Below are positions 37,686-48,342 of a DNA stretch of 64,000 nucleotides, in pieces. The DNA lies in the NCBI GenBank assembly GCA_910587795.1, contig CAJUNH010000004.1:66008-130007 (forward strand), written 5' to 3'. The position numbers and the translations under genes are program-made. The DNA comes from an uncultured Christensenellaceae bacterium (lineage in GTDB: Bacteria; Bacillota; Clostridia; Christensenellales; CAG-314). A model generated the notes under the pieces. It saw only the letters and a list, made by a program, of their open reading frames with translations, was not told where the DNA came from and made no database searches. Every line of letters begins with the position of its first letter. Position 1 is the stretch's first letter.

Positions 37686-37761
37686 GGGGGCATAGCACAG
37701 TTGGTAGCGCGATACGTTCGCAACGTATAGGTCAGGGGTTCGACTCCCCTTGTCTCCACCA
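37686..37761 (+). tRNA. tRNA-Ala (anticodon CGC), CCA encoded
   Basis: The cloverleaf was read by hand. The acceptor GGGGGCA/TGTCTCC carries the G3:U70 alanine identity pair. The anticodon stem ATACG/CGTAT has loop TTCGCAA. The T-arm is GGGGTTCGACTCCCC and the 3' end is ACCA. Confidence 0.9.
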
Positions 37762-37811
37762 TACAGTGCCCAGTTGAACCTCTTGGTTTGATTGGGTTCT
37801 TTATTTATAAA

Positions 37812-37835
37812 AACACGCAATACGGCGTGTTTTTT
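37812..37835 (+). terminator. Terminator after tRNA-Ala
   Basis: The stem is AACACGC/GCGTGTT, followed by TTTTT. Confidence 0.6.
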
Positions 37836-37933
37836 GCATTAACGGGTGTTTGGGCGAGGTTCGTTTTAGGTTGTCTATGAGTAGGAAAACCAACCTAAAA
37901 TGAATGTATGGACTTGCAGTTTAATGCTACTTG

Positions 37934-39202
37934 TTATATACAAGCACCCGCCACAGTGCCATTTAAATTATATTTATTTTCTAAACTTTGCAAACCTTTT
38001 GTTTTAATGGTCTCTAACAATTTTATATCTGCTGATAATATCTCGATTTGATGCTCTATACTTTTTGCTTGATTATTTAAATTAGCATTATCCTTTTGCA
38101 AACCTGTAATTTTTCTTTGTAATTCTATAATTTCGTTACTTGAAATAGGCGCATAAGCTTCTTTAATTAAAGAAATAAGCTGTTCTCTATCTATTAGTCT
38201 AATGTGAGCTTCTTGCGCATAGTCTTTCGCTTGCTTTGTAAAATGACTATTCGTTATCACCCAAGCATTTTTTGTTTTGTATTTTGCCATTGATCCATAA
38301 ACTTCATATAAGGCGTGAATACCAACCATACCTGAATACAACTTGCATTGCACGCTAATTGTATTATCTACAATCAAATCAGCCCCGCAGTCGCCACTTC
38401 CCTTTGTCATTGTTACAGAATGGTTGAGTTGTCTAAACATTTTTTCGCAATAGGCTTCAAACTCTAGACCAGTTAGAGTATCTACATATTCTATTCCACC
38501 CCGCTTGGCAATTGCTTTACGCTCAATATCACGTAATTTATTTTGTTGGTCAAATATACTAGATGTGTTATTAGAAATATCAACTTTAATTATTCTTAAC
38601 TGTTCATTAAATTTGGCTATCTGACTTTCTATTACAGCTTTAATTTTTGTTATTCTTGCATTCTTTTTTCTTAATTTAGTAAAAACAACTATCCCTATAC
38701 AAATTAGAATTGGAATAATGATTATAGTTCCCAGTGGTAAATAGTAAGAGTTCGTTTCGCCGATAGACTTAATCTCATAGACTTCGTTATCTGATAGCTT
38801 GTATTCAATTTTAACAATTTGATAATTATCAGCAATATAACAAGCTTTCTGATAGCTCGCCGAAGGGTCTAACATATGTATTGCTATCGTAATTTTTTTA
38901 TTCTTTTTGACCGTGTAGGATATCAGATTGGGATAACTAAAAATTTCTTTTGTATTCTTATCTTGACAATATAATATGATTTCGTTCGTGTTTATAACAA
39001 TTGTGTCGTTTGTTGCATTTATAATTTCGCCATCGGCATAGACGCCACTAACATTATGTATAGAGAAAGTACCTACCTTCCTTACTAATTTAGAATATTT
39101 AGCTGTATCACTCCAAACATAAAATCCCGTAATGGAATAGAACCCGACAATAATGCCTATTATCAAACATACTAACACAAAATAACCAATAACTTTTTTC
39201 AT
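37934..39202 (-). CDS. Membrane-anchored Mrr-type (restriction endonuclease fold) protein with coiled coils
   Basis: 422 aa. Its two TM helices (VIGYFVLVCLIIGIIVGFY; LGTIIIIPILICIGIVVF) flank a ~130-aa outer domain. The cytoplasmic Mrr_cat pattern is LTGLEFEAYCEKMFRQLNH.V..T.GSGDCGADLIV....ISVQCKLY...VGIHALYEVYG......TKNAWVITNSHFTKQAKDYA. Heptad-rich segments lie on both sides of it. Confidence 0.65.
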   Translation of the reverse strand: MKKVIGYFVLVCLIIGIIVGFYSITGFYVWSDTAKYSKLVRKVGTFSIHNVSGVYADGEIINATNDTIVINTNEIILYCQDKNTKEIFSYPNLISYTVKKNKKITIAIHMLDPSASYQKACYIADNYQIVKIEYKLSDNEVYEIKSIGETNSYYLPLGTIIIIPILICIGIVVFTKLRKKNARITKIKAVIESQIAKFNEQLRIIKVDISNNTSSIFDQQNKLRDIERKAIAKRGGIEYVDTLTGLEFEAYCEKMFRQLNHSVTMTKGSGDCGADLIVDNTISVQCKLYSGMVGIHALYEVYGSMAKYKTKNAWVITNSHFTKQAKDYAQEAHIRLIDREQLISLIKEAYAPISSNEIIELQRKITGLQKDNANLNNQAKSIEHQIEILSADIKLLETIKTKGLQSLENKYNLNGTVAGACI

Positions 39203-39223
39203 AGTAATTTAAAAATTGATAAT

Positions 39224-39724
39224 TCAATTGGATTGGTTTATCTTTTGTCTACTCTCTATGTATTTTATTAAGCAACGCGAGTACAAGTTCATAAAATCTA
39301 ATTCGCTTTTTTTAGGTGTAAAATTATAGCGCCAATCGTTATTTGCTAACTTATTCTCGTCTAATAATCTAAGTAAATTACTATTCCCATTATCCATATT
39401 ATTAAATAAGTGTTGCACTTCACTTTGAATATTCAAGGGAAATTTTTCAAAAAGAAGCTTTAAATTATGAACCTTGTTCGTTTTAGGATAATCTATTTTT
39501 TCTAATTCAAGAATGCAACAACTTAAATATTCAATGGCATAAGTATAACACAATATACTTGGTATAATTGTGTTGATATAATTTTTATCGAACTCTTGAT
39601 TTTTTAACAAATTTGCCGACCTAAAATATGAACGCCCTAAATATAGCAATAAATCCCAGTGCCCGTCAAAAGATACTGTATAATCCCATAAATTATTGTG
39701 TGAGTGAATATCTGTCACTTTCAT
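39224..39724 (-). CDS. HEPN-like four-helix protein (166 aa)
   Basis: I start at MKVTDIH after RBS AGAGG. The blocks YAIEYLSCCILE...KVHNLKLLFEKFP...NDWRYNF resemble the HEPN (PF05168-like) pattern A.E..lK.......HdL..L....... RY. Confidence 0.4.
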   Translation of the reverse strand: MKVTDIHSHNNLWDYTVSFDGHWDLLLYLGRSYFRSANLLKNQEFDKNYINTIIPSILCYTYAIEYLSCCILELEKIDYPKTNKVHNLKLLFEKFPLNIQSEVQHLFNNMDNGNSNLLRLLDENKLANNDWRYNFTPKKSELDFMNLYSRCLIKYIESRQKINQSN

Positions 39725-39953
39725 AACAATACCTCTATTTATGATAAAGTATATCACTTTTCACCATAAAAGTAAATACTTTTGTTGTAAAAGAATTAGC
39801 TATGGAAAAATTCGTTTTAGGTTATTACTGCTCCACCATTAGTAAATGATACGAACCATAATGAAAATTATCGGTTCGTTTTATTTTACAAAGTTAATAT
39901 TCGGGTTTAAAATTGAAAGGTGATTTGTAAAATAGTAATTATGAGGAAATACT

Positions 39954-40378: not shown

Positions 40379-40959
40379 TCAATAATCTATCAATCTTCCG
40401 TTATCGTCCCATTTGCCGAACATTATACCTTGACGTGTGTTTTTAATAAACTTCTGTAAGCGACTATTAAATAATTCGGGCTGTTTTTTCTTTATTTGTA
40501 TTGTATCAATTCACACGCGCCTATATAAGGGCGGAAAACTCATATAATTGTCCCATACCGTTTTATCCGCCTGCAATGCCGTTAATATCGTTTCGTCAAT
40601 CACAAAACCTCTTTCGGACATATCGGGTAATACCGCTCGTCCAGCATCAGTCATTTTACCTAGCTTTTCCGTACGGCGGCAGCGTTCTTTATTTAATTTG
40701 GACCATAAAGATTTAGCCTTACGCGGAGCGAACTTTTGTGCCGTAATACCGTTTTCGAGCTTCTTGGCTGTACTGTCTATCCATCGAAACACATTGCCTC
40801 TTCAACGGCGTCTATATACCAAAATACATTATCGCTTTTCGGTTCGCCGCGCTTTACTATACACCAACATTCTTTTTCGATTGCATAATATTTAGAAAGC
40901 CAATCTCTAAATTCTTCTCGGTTGCAAACGCTTAATAAATTGTTTATTTCAATACTCAT
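40379..40959 (-). pseudogene. YdeI/OmpD-associated-family gene with a frameshift and an in-frame stop
   Basis: The N-part ends ...VEEAMCFDG* and the next frame continues (G)WIDSTAKK.... Reading TGT TTC GAT GGA TAG suggests a 1-nt loss in the Gly codon near 40787. After ...PPLYRRV a TGA (40511-40513) interrupts a frame that continues for 44 codons (IDTIQIKKKQPELFNSRLQKFIKNTRQG...). Confidence 0.65.
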
Positions 40960-41351
40960 TGCTCCAACAAATCCTTTATTTGTTCTTCCGTATATGGGCT
41001 TACGTAATCGGGAGCGCATAAATGCGTTTGGCTCCACGTCATCATTTGCGTAAGGATAGGCACAAAACTTTTACCGAGTTCTGTCAAGGTATATTCTACT
41101 TTGGGCGGAACTTCTTTATAAATTTCACGGTGAATAAAGCCGTCGTCTTCTAACTCTCGCAACTGTTTAGTTAGAGTTGATTGCGTAATACCGTCTATTC
41201 TTCTTAATAGTTCGCCGAAACGCTGTACTTTGCTTACGGCAATATACCACATAATGAGAAATTTCCACTTTCCGCTTAATACGGATTGCAACGTGCTCAT
41301 AGGGACGCACCGCATCATAACTTCTCTTTTTCTAAATTTATTATCTGTCAT
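40956..41351 (-). CDS. HxlR-family winged-helix transcriptional regulator
   Basis: The pattern CPMSTLQSVLSGKWKFLIMWYI...RFGELLRRIDGITQSTLTKQLRELEDDGFIHREIYKEVPPKVEYTLTELG is canonical HxlR. It has an ATGA overlap with the ydeI-like gene. Confidence 0.85.
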   Translation of the reverse strand: MTDNKFRKREVMMRCVPMSTLQSVLSGKWKFLIMWYIAVSKVQRFGELLRRIDGITQSTLTKQLRELEDDGFIHREIYKEVPPKVEYTLTELGKSFVPILTQMMTWSQTHLCAPDYVSPYTEEQIKDLLEQ

Positions 41352-42388: not shown

Positions 42389-42691
42389 TCTTAAAACCGC
42401 GCCGACTTACAGCAGGGCGTATGCCTGTTTTGCTGCAAAAATCCAATAGATCCGTTGATACGGCGGTTTACTTCAATCTCCGCGGCAGAAAAAATGTAAT
42501 CGCGTACGATGTTTATGTTAAATACACCAAACTGCCATAGACTCTGCTGAAAACGGTGATTAAACTTCAATAGAGCTCCGCCTTTTATTGTTGTATAACT
42601 TATAAAACGTAATATATTTTTTTGTCAAGGGTGCCGCGGGCTTTATAGCATACAAAAACCTTTCGGCGCAGTCGGCAAATTAATACACATT

Positions 42692-42733
42692 AAAAACGTC
42701 CAAACTCTCAAATAATAATGAGCGTTTGGACGT
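42692..42733 (-). terminator. Terminator of the LRR gene
   Basis: The 10-bp stem is ACGTCCAAAC/GTTTGGACGT, with a U-tract on the minus strand. Confidence 0.6.
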
Positions 42734-42790
42734 TTAATCATTTTACTGCAAAGAGGTATTATTTTTAAACACGCCGAGTATACATAAAAT

Positions 42791-45046
42791 TTAATCAGTA
42801 GCGGTAAATTTTATTTTCGGGTTCAGTTTTGTAAAATATTTTCTCATACGTTCGGGCGCGCAAACCGTTTCAAGGTTGACCGAATCGTCGAAACAACCGT
42901 CGGGCGAATACAGGCTTTGGGGCAGCGTAAGATGTTTTAGCTTTTTACAGCCTTTAAACGCTTCGCTCATTATTATTTCCACGCCTTCGGGTATAACAAT
43001 GCTTTCAAGCTCCGATTCCGCAAAGGCTTCGGCGTATATCCGCATAACGGTACCTCCGGCAGGTATCACTGTCGTGGGGCAGCCCGCCCAAAGCTCTCTT
43101 TTTGTTAAGTTCAGCAGGCAGTTACCTTGCGAAGAAAATACTTCGTTGCCCTCGGCTACGGTTATTTTTTCCAGTTTGGGTTTAAACCTGAAACCCGCGT
43201 TAAAAAATGATTTTGCCGTGGACGGTAACGAAATAACTTTAACGTTATCGCACTTATAAAACGATAGGTAGCCTATTTCTTCCACCCCTTCGGGGAAGTT
43301 AAGAACCTCCAGTTTTTTGCACCCCTCAAAAGCGCAGCTTCCTATTGTTTTCAGTCCTTGGGGCATTTTCAGTTCGGTGACGTTCCCGCAATTATAAAAA
43401 GCATATGCGCCTATTTCTTTCAATCCATCATCGAAAACAACGGCTTCCAGGTTGGAACATTCATTAAACGCGCTGTCGCCAACCGTTTCCAAACCGTAAG
43501 GAAAAGTGACGGATTTGATTCCCGTGCAAGAATCGAACGCCTTGTTTCCTATCTTTTTCACTCCGCGCGGAATAACAACATTCTCTAATTTTCCGCATTT
43601 ATAAAAAGCGCCGTTTCCTATCTTGTCTATGCCGCTTTCCGGAATAACCGAGGAGTTGCAGCCGAGCACAAGCGTTTTGTTTTTGACGTCCACTATGCAG
43701 TCGTTTACGCTTCGGTATTTTTTGTTTCCCTCGTCAACTGTTATCGAGCAGAGGTTTTCGCAGCCCTCAAACGCGCTGCCTGCTATCGCCGTGACAGAAG
43801 AAGATATTACAACGCTCTCTAATTTCTTTTTACCTTTAAACGCCTTAGCCTTTATCGCCGTAACTCCGTCGGGTATAACTACGTTAACAGCCTTTCCGCG
43901 GTATTTGCGGATAGCGGTGCCGTCCATTTCAAAGTCGGGGTTTGATATCTTGCGTTGGATTTTCTCCGCCAAAGTACATCCTACAAACGCATCTCTGCTT
44001 ATAAAGTCGGGGTCGGGCGGCAAAATTACGTCTTTAAGCGCACATCCCCAAAACGCGCTGTCGCCTATGTACTTAACCGAAGGCGGAATAACGGCTTCCT
44101 GCAGTTTTTCACAGCTTATAAACGCATATTTTTCAATTTTTACAAGTCCGTTGGGCATTACTGCTTTTTTTAGATTGCGGCAGCAGCGGAACGTGGCGGA
44201 TTCTATTGCCGTAATTCCATTGCCTATGGTTACGGAAGTTATCCCGCTCATTTCAAACGCTCCCGAACCTACTTTTACGGTACGGTCGGATATTACGACA
44301 TCGCATTGCAGGCTTTTGCAGTTTTGAAAGGCGTTTTTTTCAATGCGTTCAACATTTTCAAGATTGATTTTTTCCAGCTTTTCACATCCCTCAAACGCGC
44401 TTACGTCTAACTTTTTTACGCTTTCGGGTAAAACTATCTCTTTTAAAGACCTGCAATTAAGAAACGCATACCTGCCTATGCTTTTAACGCTTTCGGGAAT
44501 ATTAATCTCTTTTAAATAATACTGACGGCAAAACGCGCCTTCGTTAATAGCCGTGATACTGCCGTCGTCGGGAATAACGGAATTTCGGCAGCCGGAAATA
44601 ACCGTTCCCGTCGCCCTTTCAATTAAACAGTTTCCCTCCGAGCGGAAAACGGGGTTGTTTTCGTCGACGGTAATTTCTTTTAATCCGTAACAGTTGTTAA
44701 ACGGCTGATACTTTTTGTCCAGTTTAACAAGCGAAGCGGGCAGATGAACTTTTTCAAGCGAACAGCAATGATTAAACGCCCACGGTCCCAGCTCCTCCAA
44801 GCCTTCTTGAAAAATTACTTCTTTTAGACTGTAACAGTGGTTAAACGCTTCTTTTCCAACTAATTTAAGCGTAGACGGAAATATCACGGATACGCAGCCC
44901 TCGCTTTCGAAGGCACAATTATGTATTTTTATTACGCCATCGGGCACGGCTATGTTGCAGCTTCCTTTAACGGGCGTTCTGTGTTTTAATACAACGTTAT
45001 TTTCTATTATACCGTAAAAGTCGTATTCGGTGTTTTTCGTTGCCAT
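42791..45046 (-). CDS. Cytoplasmic BspA-type leucine-rich-repeat (LRR_5) protein
   Basis: 751 aa made almost entirely of ~23-25-aa repeats of the type IP.SVK.IG..AF..C..LKEI. The N-terminus MATKNTEYDFYGIIENN has no signal peptide or anchor. Confidence 0.8.
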   Translation of the reverse strand: MATKNTEYDFYGIIENNVVLKHRTPVKGSCNIAVPDGVIKIHNCAFESEGCVSVIFPSTLKLVGKEAFNHCYSLKEVIFQEGLEELGPWAFNHCCSLEKVHLPASLVKLDKKYQPFNNCYGLKEITVDENNPVFRSEGNCLIERATGTVISGCRNSVIPDDGSITAINEGAFCRQYYLKEINIPESVKSIGRYAFLNCRSLKEIVLPESVKKLDVSAFEGCEKLEKINLENVERIEKNAFQNCKSLQCDVVISDRTVKVGSGAFEMSGITSVTIGNGITAIESATFRCCRNLKKAVMPNGLVKIEKYAFISCEKLQEAVIPPSVKYIGDSAFWGCALKDVILPPDPDFISRDAFVGCTLAEKIQRKISNPDFEMDGTAIRKYRGKAVNVVIPDGVTAIKAKAFKGKKKLESVVISSSVTAIAGSAFEGCENLCSITVDEGNKKYRSVNDCIVDVKNKTLVLGCNSSVIPESGIDKIGNGAFYKCGKLENVVIPRGVKKIGNKAFDSCTGIKSVTFPYGLETVGDSAFNECSNLEAVVFDDGLKEIGAYAFYNCGNVTELKMPQGLKTIGSCAFEGCKKLEVLNFPEGVEEIGYLSFYKCDNVKVISLPSTAKSFFNAGFRFKPKLEKITVAEGNEVFSSQGNCLLNLTKRELWAGCPTTVIPAGGTVMRIYAEAFAESELESIVIPEGVEIIMSEAFKGCKKLKHLTLPQSLYSPDGCFDDSVNLETVCAPERMRKYFTKLNPKIKFTATD

Positions 45047-45131
45047 ATTTTATTTCTCCCATATTATAGTAAACGTTATAGTAAGTTGCTGATTTTATTT
45101 GTTAATTATGCGCTCTCTTGATAAGTCATTA

Positions 45132-46733
45132 CTATAAGGAATCTTTTAAACTATCTAGAAATAAATTGTAATATTCCAAAAATACGGCATAAGCGACTTC
45201 TTTATTCGTTTCAACCATTAATTTTGGAACGTCGGAGTTATCACTTTCATCCACATAAAATACGATCGCTTCGTCGTCTTTTATGTTATCGATTCGGTCT
45301 AACGGTTTTAATACGCAATATATTTTTTCGTCATACGGTATCACTGCAACCTGTTCAAAGATAATTTTTCGTCCGTTATTGTCCTTTAAAAGCAGAGGTC
45401 TAGTATTTTCTTCATCAAGAAGTATATCAAGTATATCAAGGTCTTCTTCCGTTGCATTTTCTATAACGAATTCGTTTGTGTTAGTAATTTCTTTATTCAC
45501 GTTTTCTTTTTGAGCTTTTGGATTACTTACTTTATCTATTATGGATTGCATAGAGTTTGTTATATTTTGTAAGTCGGTTAGATAGTCGTATCGTTCGGTC
45601 AGTTTACCGGATGCAATAAGCGACTGAACATATTCGATAACGATTTTGCAATCGGATGAATCGATATGCAGACCGTATAAAATCAGTGTTTGCGCAATCA
45701 TAGGGTGCATTGTAAGAATATAATCGTTATTAGCGCTCTTGTATCGATTGAGCAATCCTAGATTTGTAAGACGAATAATTTCGTTGGAGGATTGCAGTGC
45801 AAGAACGTCAAGCAGAAATTTTTCGCTTATTTGAAACTGTTTGTATATAGCAAGCAAAGACAGTATTTTTTGCGAAACAGCATCGCTGATTATATCCGCA
45901 AAATCGGTAATTTTAAGGAATGAGCACAGATTGTTGGCTATCGTATCGAATTTGTCGTTTCCGTGAATATCGCCGTTGAAAGCATTTTTCTTCAAATATA
46001 TTTCACTCTTTTCACAGTAGTTTTTCAATGAGATATTTTGCTCGTTAAGCATTTGCGCAATCCAAATTATAGCTTGTGTATTTCCCAAAAACTCATTGTG
46101 TATATGCTTTTCAAAGTATTGCAGATCGTTTGGCTCAAAACTCGAATAATAGTTTTTAAAAATCTTTGTTGTTACAGAAACATCTAATTCTGTAATTTCT
46201 TTGTTAAGAATTTCGCAAGGCAGCGTAAGTTTTTTACGTGTAGTAATTAAAATTTTACATTGAAACAGTTCGAGTAAGCTGTTTATAAATTTTTCGTTTA
46301 AATTATTAACGTTGTCAATTAGCAGAATAACGTTATCGCTTAATTTTTTTACGGCGTTGCCTAAAATATTCAGCGCTAAGTCTTTATCCTGACTGGCTAC
46401 TTGTGCATATTGTGCTATCACTTCGGAGCTGTAATCTATTTGTAATAATAAGTTTTTAATAGTTGCGTCCTGTTTGTCTTCAAAAACAATTGTGCGCGGA
46501 CATAAAAGATTGGAAGACTGTACAAAACGCTTTGCCAAAGTCGTTTTGCCTATGCCTCCAATACCGTATAGTACGGCAATGCGTTTATTTTGTTTAAAAA
46601 ACCAGTCATTTAATGCGTTGATTTCTTGTTCTCTGCCCACAAAATATCTTTCAAGCGTTGTATTTTCGGACTGTAAAACGGGCTTAGCACTATTGATAAC
46701 AGATAAATTTCTTTTGAGTTCTTCTGTGTTCAT
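45132..46733 (-). CDS. NB-ARC-type STAND NTPase fused to a C-terminal DUF1292 domain
   Basis: 533 aa. FVGREQEINAL is followed by the P-loop GIGGIGKTTLAKRF. Walker B is VILLIDNVNN, the RNBS-B-like motif is KILITTRKK, and the MHD-like motif is LTMHPMIAQ. The last ~100 aa (LLLKDNNGRKIIFEQVAVIPYDEKIYCVLKPLD....DEAIVFYVDE......LMVETNKEVAYAVFLEY) fit the DUF1292 pattern. Confidence 0.75.
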   Translation of the reverse strand: MNTEELKRNLSVINSAKPVLQSENTTLERYFVGREQEINALNDWFFKQNKRIAVLYGIGGIGKTTLAKRFVQSSNLLCPRTIVFEDKQDATIKNLLLQIDYSSEVIAQYAQVASQDKDLALNILGNAVKKLSDNVILLIDNVNNLNEKFINSLLELFQCKILITTRKKLTLPCEILNKEITELDVSVTTKIFKNYYSSFEPNDLQYFEKHIHNEFLGNTQAIIWIAQMLNEQNISLKNYCEKSEIYLKKNAFNGDIHGNDKFDTIANNLCSFLKITDFADIISDAVSQKILSLLAIYKQFQISEKFLLDVLALQSSNEIIRLTNLGLLNRYKSANNDYILTMHPMIAQTLILYGLHIDSSDCKIVIEYVQSLIASGKLTERYDYLTDLQNITNSMQSIIDKVSNPKAQKENVNKEITNTNEFVIENATEEDLDILDILLDEENTRPLLLKDNNGRKIIFEQVAVIPYDEKIYCVLKPLDRIDNIKDDEAIVFYVDESDNSDVPKLMVETNKEVAYAVFLEYYNLFLDSLKDSL

Positions 46734-46744
46734 TGTAATCCTCC

Positions 46745-47290
46745 TTATTGCATTGCATTCAAAATTTGGGGAATTTTGTTAAAGAATTGCGTTTGTGTTT
46801 CGTCTGCAATCGTAACGCATAGCGCCTGGTATGTTTGTTGCTCTTCGTTCAAAACCGATTCGTTGTCAATGTTTAATTTTAACAAATTATCAAAATAGTA
46901 ATCGGATTTTTTTTCGTACCATTTATTAATTTCATTCATTGTAGCAAATAATTCCATTAGGTCGTTAAACCATTTCTCATTAGAAATTAAAATCAGCTGA
47001 TTGGTAGCAGCCAATTGCTCTACATGTGTTAAAGATAAAATCGTATGTCCAATATCCGTGCCGGTTTTGATTTTTTGCAGCGTTTGATTTTGAATATCTT
47101 TCCTACCCCATTCCGTTAAATCTTTTTTAATCAATTTGACTATGCTGTTACATTGTGCTTTTTCTATCCATTTATTTGCTCCCCAAGCAGACAATATCGC
47201 AAACGCAAAGCCTAGCAAAGACCCTATAACAGTAATGGCAAAGTCCGACCAATTCCATTCCCATGCCGTCGATAAAAGCGTAAAAAGCAT
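46745..47290 (-). CDS. Small single-TM protein (181 aa), first gene of the NB-ARC operon
   Basis: An N-terminal TM (FAITVIGSLLGFAFAILSAWGA) is followed by a helical domain. There is an 11-nt gap to the NB-ARC gene. RBS GGAG. Confidence 0.5.
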   Translation of the reverse strand: MLFTLLSTAWEWNWSDFAITVIGSLLGFAFAILSAWGANKWIEKAQCNSIVKLIKKDLTEWGRKDIQNQTLQKIKTGTDIGHTILSLTHVEQLAATNQLILISNEKWFNDLMELFATMNEINKWYEKKSDYYFDNLLKLNIDNESVLNEEQQTYQALCVTIADETQTQFFNKIPQILNAMQ

Positions 47291-47322
47291 TTATGTAATC
47301 TCCGTATAACATACTTTTTTTG

Positions 47323-47351
47323 ATTGTATCATAGACAAAATCAAATGTCAA
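47323..47351 (-). promoter_or_regulatory. Sigma70 promoter of the TM/NB-ARC/LRR operon (TTGACA - 17 nt - TACAAT on minus strand)
   Basis: Read on the reverse complement: TTGACATTTGATTTTGTCTATGATACAAT. Confidence 0.55.
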
Positions 47352-47445
47352 TATTCGATGTGAGTTTTTAAATGCTTTATAAAATTTGACTGTGGCAATA
47401 TTTTTACAGGCAATAGTAAACTTTATTTTATGTTCGTGCAGAATA

Positions 47446-47646
47446 ACAGGCGTAGCGCATGTGTGCTATATTAATAAAAAACCTTTTATGGCAATTTGCA
47501 GTATTACCGATAATGCCGATAACGTCGGGCATAATGACTTTGAATTTAACTGTAAAAATGCGTCGAATATAGCTGCCGATTTCGTTAAATTGTTTATAGA
47601 AGAATGTAAAAATTATTTTGGGAGTGTTAAAGGACTTATATTATAG
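47446..47646 (+). pseudogene. mtnN: 3' fragment of an MTA/SAH nucleosidase (PNP_UDP_1 family) gene
   Basis: TGVAHVCYINKKPFMAICSITDNADNVGHNDFEFNCKNASNIAADFVKLFIEE matches the C-terminal ~65 aa of MtnN/Pfs (A.AHVC..FNVPF.V.RAISD.AD......F.EF...AA..S...V..L). The upstream ~170 aa of such enzymes are missing. Confidence 0.6.
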
Positions 47647-47898
47647 ACAAAGACAAAGAACGCCGCATTTAATTGCAACGCTGTTAGAGATTCGGTAAAA
47701 GTCCGTAAAGCGCCTATCAGCTTTTGTAAGTTCGTATGCAATAACGCACACTTTATATTGTTATTGTTCCTTTGGGGACTGAATATGTAGGCGTATGATA
47801 AAAATGCATTCGATAAAATGAATAATAAAATACCGCATAGGCTTTAAAAAGTTTATGCGGCTTTTTGTTTGTTATTGTTTTGTAGCAGTGCAAAATAA

Positions 47899-48342
47899 TT
47901 AGCTTGCGGATCTGCCGAGAATAAAATCAACGGATACGTCAAAGCCGTCGGCGAGCGCAATTATGTTATCAAGCGTAGGTTCGCGCTTTCCGTTCTTCCA
48001 TTCATAAAACCGCGAAGCCGAAATATGTGCTGTTTTATAAAATTGCCACCATGGACACTCGAAATACTTTTTCAGTCTCACCAATTGCTCGGAGAACAGA
48101 GGGCATTTTTGAAATTTCGAAGAGTAGTTTTCATGTTCTCTGCCAAGCAAAAAATCCGTTGTGCAATTAAAATAGTCTGCTAATTTAATCAGTGTGCCAA
48201 CAGATGGTGTGAATTGTGAATGTAATGCTCGGGAAATAGTAGACGAGTCTAACCCAATTTTGTTTGCGAGTTGTGTAACTGTTATTTCTTGTTCGAACAT
48301 CAACGAATCGAGTGTTTCAGCAAATTTCGACAAATTATCCAT
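47899..48342 (-). CDS. XRE-family regulator with two HTH_3 domains
   Basis: 147 aa. The first HTH is ITVTQLANKIGLDSSTISRAL.... The second is ISASRFYEWKNGKREPTLDNIIALADGFDVSVDFILG. Confidence 0.8.
   Translation of the reverse strand: MDNLSKFAETLDSLMFEQEITVTQLANKIGLDSSTISRALHSQFTPSVGTLIKLADYFNCTTDFLLGREHENYSSKFQKCPLFSEQLVRLKKYFECPWWQFYKTAHISASRFYEWKNGKREPTLDNIIALADGFDVSVDFILGRSAS

Follow-up and report, generated by a model that had tools for sequence, protein, structure and literature searches.

A rare NB-ARC–DUF1292 ATPase and its transmembrane partner as a candidate STAND/NLR-like defence cassette in an uncultured Christensenellaceae bacterium

In STAND proteins such as Avs, bNACHT, Apaf-1 and the plant NLRs, the C-terminal position is normally that of the sensor. 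The bacterial Avs/AVAST and bNACHT systems combine a P-loop STAND switch with a C-terminal sensor and with a variable effector, either TIR or membrane-acting, that is N-terminal or adjacent to the N-terminus, and they are distributed sporadically in defence islands. In the CARD-NLR gasdermin operons, a STAND ATPase goes with a membrane-acting effector that has its own gene, and mutually exclusive transmembrane (TM) and TIR effectors are the classic effector-swap pattern of STAND, CBASS and Thoeris-type immunity. Plant integrated-decoy NLRs (NLR-IDs; RRS1-WRKY, RGA5/Pik-1 HMA) carry a small tethered copy of a host protein together with an NB-ARC switch. For bacteria, this idea has been raised only speculatively, in the case of bNACHT11 and with no host counterpart identified (PMC11702601). 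Here we describe a locus in a 64,000-nucleotide (nt) stretch of contig CAJUNH010000004.1 from an uncultured Christensenellaceae bacterium (hereafter the window, from whose first letter all coordinates are counted unless another locus is named). It comprises a gene for a single-pass TM protein and a gene for an NB-ARC ATPase that ends in a DUF1292 domain, followed by a leucine-rich repeat (LRR) gene. The architecture and context of the first two genes suggest, with moderate confidence on our part, a horizontally acquired two-gene cassette whose most likely role is abortive infection or anti-phage defence; the best reading is a rare, uncatalogued candidate variant of bacterial STAND/NLR-like defence.

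The cassette shares with Avs and bNACHT the P-loop switch, the relative placement of the putative effector and sensor, and the sporadic occurrence in defence islands. Unlike these systems, its ATPase matches no Avs or bNACHT model, its nucleotide-binding oligomerisation domain (NOD) is of the NB-ARC type with a fold nearest to those of Apaf-1, CED-4 and plant NLRs, it has no repeat (TPR, WD40 or LRR) or large sensor but just a 100-amino-acid (aa) DUF1292 domain, and the putative effector is a separate gene in most members of the family. The separate effector gene recalls the CARD-NLR gasdermin operons, from which the cassette differs in having no protease, CARD or gasdermin and in having a single-pass TM partner of no known family. 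The features of the two genes are as follows.

46745–47290, minus strand: gene of the TM protein, 181 aa
46907–46914, minus strand: A8 homopolymer in the TM gene; in a sub-lineage with A7, the protein ends after 136 aa
45132–46733, minus strand: gene of the STAND ATPase, 533 aa
45678–46646, minus strand: NB-ARC module of the ATPase, residues ~30–352 (nucleotide-binding domain, helical domain and winged helix), from Pfam, motifs and Foldseek
46533–46565, minus strand: P-loop GIGGIGKTTLA, residues 57–67, invariant in the six-member alignment
46308–46325, minus strand: Walker B LLIDNV, residues 137–142, invariant in the same alignment
46230–46253, minus strand: TTR motif ILITTRKK, residues 161–168, likewise invariant
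45696–45713, minus strand: MHP (MHD-like) motif TMHPMI, residues 341–346, likewise invariant
45441–45524, minus strand: linker between the NOD and the C-terminal domain, residues 404–431, with a predicted local distance difference test score (pLDDT) below 50
45135–45434, minus strand: DUF1292 domain, residues ~434–533, the proposed sensor or bait

The ATPase is supported as an NB-ARC-type STAND protein that lacks both a fused effector and a repeat sensor. Residues G57, G59, G60, G62, K63, T64 and D140 are invariant in all six aligned family members, as are T164, R166, M342, H343 and P344; the third residue of the MHD-type motif is P rather than D. The protein scores 25.5 bits against Pfam NB-ARC (PF00931, cut-off 23.5) over model positions 1–138 of 248, and five of the six members match this family at E ≤ 0.01 (best 1.1e-11). 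Pfam ATPase_2 and AAA_22 also match, and NACHT does not. The AlphaFold model has a pLDDT of ~80–90 over the NOD and 70 overall, and its predicted fold is of the NB-ARC type: with this model (mccf1051368a7) as the query, the top Foldseek matches in the PDB are Apaf-1 (3e-11), CED-4 (3e-10), NRC2 (5e-9) and Sr35 (9e-9). Beyond the winged helix lie a 45-aa helical stub, the linker, which varies in length and sequence across the family alignment, and the DUF1292 domain; neither Pfam nor the AlphaFold model reveals an LRR, TPR or WD40 repeat domain in the 533 residues. A sequence-only reading of the window had named the same motif set and the same absence of an N-terminal effector and a C-terminal repeat sensor, and both points are borne out.

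The family is small. A word-indexed search of 5.8 billion proteins returned six clusters of full-length relatives (98, 53, 41, 38, 37 and 35% identity), so that homologs outside the species reach at most 53% identity, and a HMMER profile search of 1.84 billion representative proteins added only P0130, P0131, P0132 and a few fragments, giving ~6–8 clusters in all. A scan of genome contigs yielded at least one close family member among the matches listed, and no cassette was found on plasmids. The closest NOD relatives outside the family are TIR-NB-ARC/NACHT-TPR proteins of ~1250–1300 aa (for example P0136), which the profile search matched over the NOD at E = 1e-48 to 1e-25. They resemble the family member P0004 in having an N-terminal TIR domain, to which P0131 has a homologous extension, and differ from the window ATPase in ending with ~700 aa of TPR-type repeats where it has the linker and DUF1292 domain. 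To our knowledge these proteins are uncharacterised and have no separate TM partner.

The C-terminal domain is, judging from its sequence, a true DUF1292 domain, as had been claimed earlier, although it falls below the Pfam cut-off. Pfam DUF1292 (PF06949) covers residues 453–513 at 20.5 bits (cut-off 24), five of the six family members match this model below the cut-off (best E = 3.9e-4), and the NCBIfam model PRK13678 scores 28 bits. No other part of the family alignment is conserved as well: mean column identity is 61% in the domain and 45% over the full length. The domain by itself, used as the query of a metagenome scan, recovered 46 loci, all with small open reading frames (ORFs; 100–160 aa where complete), whose products are stand-alone DUF1292/UPF0473 proteins of the B. 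subtilis YrzB type and 41–65% identical to the ATPase domain over ~95 residues; three of those compared with Pfam score above its cut-off (32.3, 26.4 and 29.2 bits) and are encoded after a RuvX gene. In 34 of these 46 loci, the gene follows ruvX/yqgF on the same strand after 8–87 nt, usually downstream of polA and with pheST or thrS nearby (RuvX was identified by Pfam at 137 bits in L085), a pair that we take to be the canonical yrrK-yrzB pair of Firmicutes. The stand-alone form is thus a core Firmicute gene after ruvX, whereas the cassette copy forms the end of a STAND ATPase encoded in an accessory island. The STAND-borne and stand-alone domains are indistinguishable by sequence: identities are 47–54% within and 42–49% between the two groups; 38 alignment columns are conserved (≥ 60%) in both with the same residue and none with different residues, and the motifs LDILLDEDN, FEQVAVIP, LYCxLKP and DEAIVF are common to the two. 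Ancestry from either the ruvX-linked proteins or the accessory paralogs could not be assigned, as the neighbour-joining tree of ~95 residues was star-like and uninformative. The AlphaFold model of the domain (pLDDT 85) has a long C-terminal helix against which a small beta-sheet packs.

DUF1292 had been described in the sequence-only reading as normally occurring only as a stand-alone protein. This needs correction, as rare fusions to LRR_5, TPR, FtsK-gamma and multi-TM proteins exist. DUF1292 lies C-terminal to LRR_5 in P0212, on one contig, and is N-terminal in P0229, in two samples; P0271 (761 aa) is a DUF1292 and TPR protein with an uncharacterised N-terminal domain, P0272 joins DUF1292 to a multi-TM protein and P0193 to FtsK-gamma, and P0208 and P0216 belong to the same set of proteins. 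The four that were looked up (P0212, P0229, P0271 and P0193) are singletons or come from two samples. DUF1292-like paralogs outside the ruvX context have a second recurring context (L094 4901–5827, L096 3776–7573 and L110 8004–12952), in which the paralog is followed by a protein starting ..LF...YF..; in L096 and L110, proteins of 393–401 aa follow as well, one of which, in L110, has a sub-threshold FtsK-gamma-like match. Two tandem DUF1292-like copies lie at L119 397–1041, and at L122 7426–11473 a DUF1292-like gene lies between a ClpP gene and the gene of a 1005-aa AAA/FtsH-like protease.

The TM protein is a conserved partner of the ATPase. It has one TM helix at approximately residues 15–37 (window 47180–47248; Kyte-Doolittle peak 2.19 at residue 17), followed by a helical cytoplasmic part of roughly 140 aa, and matches no family in Pfam, PADLOC or NCBIfam. 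A homologous single-pass TM gene was found directly upstream of the ATPase gene, on the same strand, in all four unfused family members with readable upstream DNA.

Window: TM protein of 181 aa, 11-nt gap to the ATPase
L001: TM protein of 190 aa, 4-nt overlap with the ATPase
L149: TM protein of 135 aa, 20-nt gap to the ATPase
L003: TM protein of 256 aa, 67-nt gap to the ATPase

The four proteins have in common the N-terminal motif DW..F...G.(L/F)(L/V)GF(A/G)(F/L)A and two helical motifs, and a hidden Markov model built from them matches these four alone among all ORFs of 131 loci. The 11-nt gap in the window, which confirms the earlier description, contains an AGGAGG ribosome-binding site. Other members carry an N-terminal fusion instead: P0004 has a TIR_2 domain (Pfam), and P0131 has an extension of ~137 residues that is homologous to that of P0004 and is not called by Pfam. 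The P0004 locus (L002), the sole TIR-type locus read, has no TM gene. The suggestion that the upstream TM protein could be an effector is strengthened by this alternation, and from these sequence relationships we infer that it is likely the effector. A truncated form is also present in the species: the 136-aa protein occurs on ~25 contigs and the 181-aa form on ~85 (roughly one in four of the species' contigs is affected), and in the A7 sub-lineage (among L137–L144) the ATPase is 98% identical. The A8-to-A7 slip could be a case of phase variation, or a costly effector may be decaying; the truncation fits the switching off of such an effector.

The base composition of the cassette differs from that of its surroundings, as the GC content overall and at third codon positions (GC3) shows.

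TM gene: GC 0.348, GC3 0.37
ATPase gene: GC 0.337, GC3 0.33
LRR gene: GC 0.443, GC3 0.47
Neighbouring HAD and PHP genes: GC 0.43–0.455, GC3 0.465–0.49

The TM and ATPase genes are low in GC, and the LRR gene is host-like. Known defence genes recur beside the homologs in the sample of five loci: Gabija lies directly upstream in L002 (GajA 483 bits, GajB 493 bits) together with a DUF4365 nuclease, AbiD (175 bits), a WYL regulator and tRNA-Val are present in L001, and a kinase similar to mad6/PD-T4-6 is present in L003. The tRNA-Val of L001 (9893–9967) is located 340 nt downstream of the ATPase, and a truncated tRNA 3' end, recognised by eye and not called by ARAGORN, occupies the locus edge in L149 (1–60); these tRNA-adjacent cassettes fit island insertion sites. 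In the window, the low-GC island begins at tRNA-Ala (37686–37761) and contains a TM-Mrr nuclease gene. The sporadic and rare distribution, the low GC content, the truncation of the TM gene in part of the species and the defence-gene neighbours fit an accessory defence module.

These observations also bear on a housekeeping-linked regulator outside phage defence, in which the ATPase would join the RuvX/DUF1292 pathway (the processing of rRNA or nucleic acids) by its DUF1292 domain and regulate it, or would regulate a membrane process by way of the TM protein. Non-immune regulators are known among STAND ATPases (MalT is one), the DUF1292 domain retains all conserved residues of the ruvX-linked protein and no defence database matches the cassette, all of which would suit such a role. 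It is set against an extremely sporadic distribution (6–8 clusters in 1.84 billion representatives), the island-like composition beside tRNA genes, the Gabija, AbiD, WYL-regulator and nuclease genes as neighbours, the alternation of the TM partner with TIR, a typical immune effector, and the inactivation of the TM gene at the strain level. We therefore regard a housekeeping-linked regulator as quite improbable.

If the cassette is a defence module, its conserved P-loop, Walker B, TTR and MHP motifs suggest that the ATPase would rest as an ADP-bound monomer. The DUF1292 domain on its flexible linker would be the sensor. This domain would probably bind the partner of the stand-alone ruvX-linked protein, or a phage factor targeting that protein. 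Binding would lead to nucleotide exchange and oligomerisation of the NB-ARC module, and the clustered N-termini would then activate the effector. In the window, L001, L003 and L149, the effector would be the separately encoded TM protein, acting by membrane damage; in the P0004 and P0131 type it would be the fused TIR, or for P0131 the extension that Pfam does not call, acting by NAD+ cleavage. Such a system would add an unusually compact NB-ARC receptor with a swappable TM/TIR effector to the bacterial NLR-like repertoire, would have a sensor recognisable as a copy of a host housekeeping protein, making the integrated-decoy idea directly testable in bacteria, and would offer a first functional handle on DUF1292/UPF0473.

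Since the DUF1292 domain faithfully reproduces a core host protein and is attached through a disordered ~30-residue linker, it may act as an integrated decoy, that is, as a bait for a phage factor that attacks the RuvX/DUF1292 pathway, with TM- or TIR-mediated cell suicide as the outcome. By analogy with the plant NLR-IDs, with which the cassette shares the NB-ARC switch and a tethered copy that retains the conserved residues of the host protein, we consider this possible, if rather unlikely. The cassette differs from the plant receptors in that its receptor protein contains no LRR and is not paired with a helper NLR, and its decoy role is a hypothesis for which no pathogen effector targeting DUF1292 is known. 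If it were true, the cassette would be the first sequence-evident bacterial case of the NLR-ID strategy and would mark DUF1292, a core Firmicute protein, as a target of phage takeover.

Alternatively, in a defence module the DUF1292 domain might serve as an adaptor or oligomerisation domain, for example as a tether between the ATPase and either the TM partner or other proteins with a DUF1292 domain, while sensing would be left to the NOD and helical stub or to the TM protein. The small size of the domain, its flexible linker, the promiscuous DUF1292 fusions (LRR_5, TPR, FtsK-gamma and TM proteins) and the tandem or accessory paralogs in non-ruvX contexts (L094, L096, L110 and L119) speak for this role. 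The C-terminal position is normally the STAND sensor, however, and the domain is present in the TIR-fused members, which have no TM partner, as well as in the TM-partnered ones, and therefore is not a dedicated TM-docking domain. We judge the adaptor role, including the tethering example, to be unlikely.

Several observations weigh against the preferred reading of a defence module with DUF1292 as its sensor. The window ATPase and P0004 have no match in PADLOC (PADLOC-DB 2.0), PADLOC gives nothing for the nearest relatives of the TIR-NB-ARC/NACHT-TPR type either, and the NCBIfam Avs4 model scores P0004 at 14.6 bits (cut-off 1500); attempts to place the ATPase or its relatives in a catalogued defence family failed accordingly, and the defence assignment is drawn from architecture and context only. 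The AlphaFold model of the whole ATPase, made from six sequences, is of only moderate quality (pLDDT 70). A flexibly linked sensor of 100 aa would be atypical of a STAND protein, and the domain could instead be the adaptor or oligomerisation module considered above. Its sequence has no match in the PDB, for its model Foldseek gives none of significance in either the PDB or BFVD, and a literature search on DUF1292/YrzB found no functional account. A phage-encoded DUF1292 homolog as a trigger through heterodimerisation was rejected, as the IMG/VR scan, 50,697 phage genomes and a fold comparison with BFVD yielded no homolog; likewise, no phage factor that targets DUF1292 is known. The LRR gene of the window, for its part, lacks the strong private promoter found in its orthologs and may depend on the cassette promoter. 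The homolog loci that were read number only five, some of them short.

The LRR gene and the transcription signals of the locus are listed below.

47323–47351, minus strand: sigma-70-type promoter with an extended -10 element, TTGACA-17-TGnTACAAT (11 of 12 matches), which serves the TM-ATPase unit
45047–45131, minus strand: ATPase-LRR spacer of 85 nt, with no hairpin and with a GGGAG ribosome-binding site
42791–45046, minus strand: LRR_5 (BspA-type) gene, 751 aa, cytoplasmic; not part of the conserved module
~42689–42735, minus strand: intrinsic terminator past the LRR gene, with a 12-bp GC-rich stem and a U-run, from folding against shuffles

The sequence-only reading had proposed that these three co-oriented genes behind one consensus promoter form a split NLR, with the LRR protein as the detached sensor and the TM protein as the effector. 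Its description of the layout holds. The promoter at 47351–47323 is the top-scoring site of the 6.4 kb scanned, in which promoter-like sites as a class are not enriched (21 found against 18.6 expected). The spacer between the ATPase and LRR genes is unstructured (-1.5 kcal/mol, z = +1.8) and free of a terminator, as had been stated, and contains only a weak promoter-like site (TTAACA-16-TACTAT), while the terminator past the LRR gene folds at -28.7 kcal/mol over a 111-nt stretch (z = -4.7, equalled in none of 200 shuffles). With no terminator in the spacer and a strong hairpin after the LRR gene, one transcript that spans the TM, ATPase and LRR genes is plausible, and co-transcription of the LRR gene with the cassette is likely in this species, which would not in itself indicate a shared function. 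The LRR protein itself was also characterised correctly as BspA-type and cytoplasmic: Pfam LRR_5 scores 446 bits over seven stretches, and the maximum 19-residue Kyte-Doolittle mean is 1.23, so there is no hydrophobic segment and therefore no signal peptide. The order TM-ATPase-LRR is constant across the contigs of this species, which reflects only recent common ancestry.

Beyond the species, the LRR gene and the cassette are found apart. None of the five homolog loci that were read (L001, L002, L003, L004 and L149, some of them short) has an LRR gene adjoining the ATPase. A tblastn search with the LRR protein against the 131 loci (1.45 Mb) gave five matches, each at a distance of several kb from the respective gene of interest and all outside the loci of the ATPase family, and LRR_5 matches in these loci are at background frequency. 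The LRR protein, for its part, has orthologs in ~14 clusters, which match it in length (~750 aa) and are 57–80% identical to it. The five orthologs that were read (59–79% identical) lie in five different contexts.

Context 1: after glf and a glycosyltransferase gene
Context 2: divergent from a TetR gene, next to proS
Context 3: after an FGGY kinase gene
Context 4: 11 nt after a DUF2461 gene
Context 5: after a Rep gene and an integrase gene

An ATPase or TM gene was found near the LRR ortholog in none of these five contexts, and the three orthologs that were checked have strong TTGAxA/TATAAT promoters of their own. As every ortholog context differs, a comparison with an empty site (the LRR synteny without the cassette) was impossible. 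The LRR gene is an independently distributed bystander that happens to sit behind the cassette in this species, which accords with the earlier caveat that the adjacency might be coincidental; LRR_5 adjacency in Clostridia can be coincidental even within one transcription unit.

A split NLR with an LRR sensor was rejected on gene neighbourhood, ortholog distribution and base composition; the missing linkage and the unrelated distribution of the LRR gene are outcomes that the sequence-only reading had itself named as refuting. The single strong promoter, the terminator placed only after the LRR gene, the cytoplasmic LRR protein and the arrangement kept in all contigs of the species are set against the absence of linkage in the homolog loci, the unrelated ortholog contexts with promoters of their own, the lack of any ATPase homolog above 53% identity beyond the species, a GC3 of 0.47 in the LRR gene versus 0.33–0.37 in the cassette, and one strain (L142 2260–4363) with an intact ATPase but with the LRR gene broken into ORFs of 332 and 348 aa. 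We keep the split NLR at all, as a very improbable reading, because rare DUF1292-LRR_5 fusions exist (P0212 and P0229), which leave a weak residual link. A same-strand downstream LRR_5 gene was seen in only one of 80 STAND loci, in Blautia faecis (L047 6287–12346), where a distant STAND ATPase (962 aa) is followed two genes downstream by an LRR_5 protein (631 aa); this may be a coincidence.

Other genes of the window island were also noted. The tRNA-Ala is followed, within 37686–39757, by a gene pair of very low GC (0.28–0.31) on the minus strand. The 422-aa protein of this pair has N-terminal TM segments and a C-terminal Mrr_cat/NA-iREase1 nuclease domain and matches ZorD, PDC-S02 and mREase_IV in PADLOC, and its 177-aa partner has no family; the two probably form a defence pair of their own in the same island. 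At 40511–41037 lie two overlapping minus-strand ORFs (86 and 93 aa), both annotated as DUF8412 in the species, which look like one frameshifted gene, i.e. a pseudogene. Upstream of the cassette, a 147-aa protein with two HTH_3 domains and weak PADLOC matches to RmrA and capH is encoded at 47899–48342. Its gene has its own terminator hairpin (47833–47860) and a tandem duplicate in the L137 lineage (L137 6932–7836), and the protein might be an island regulator. Between this gene and the cassette promoter, a short plus-strand ORF (47386–47646), whose counterpart in a related strain has a weak PNP_UDP_1 match, may be the remnant of a gene disrupted by the arrival of the cassette.

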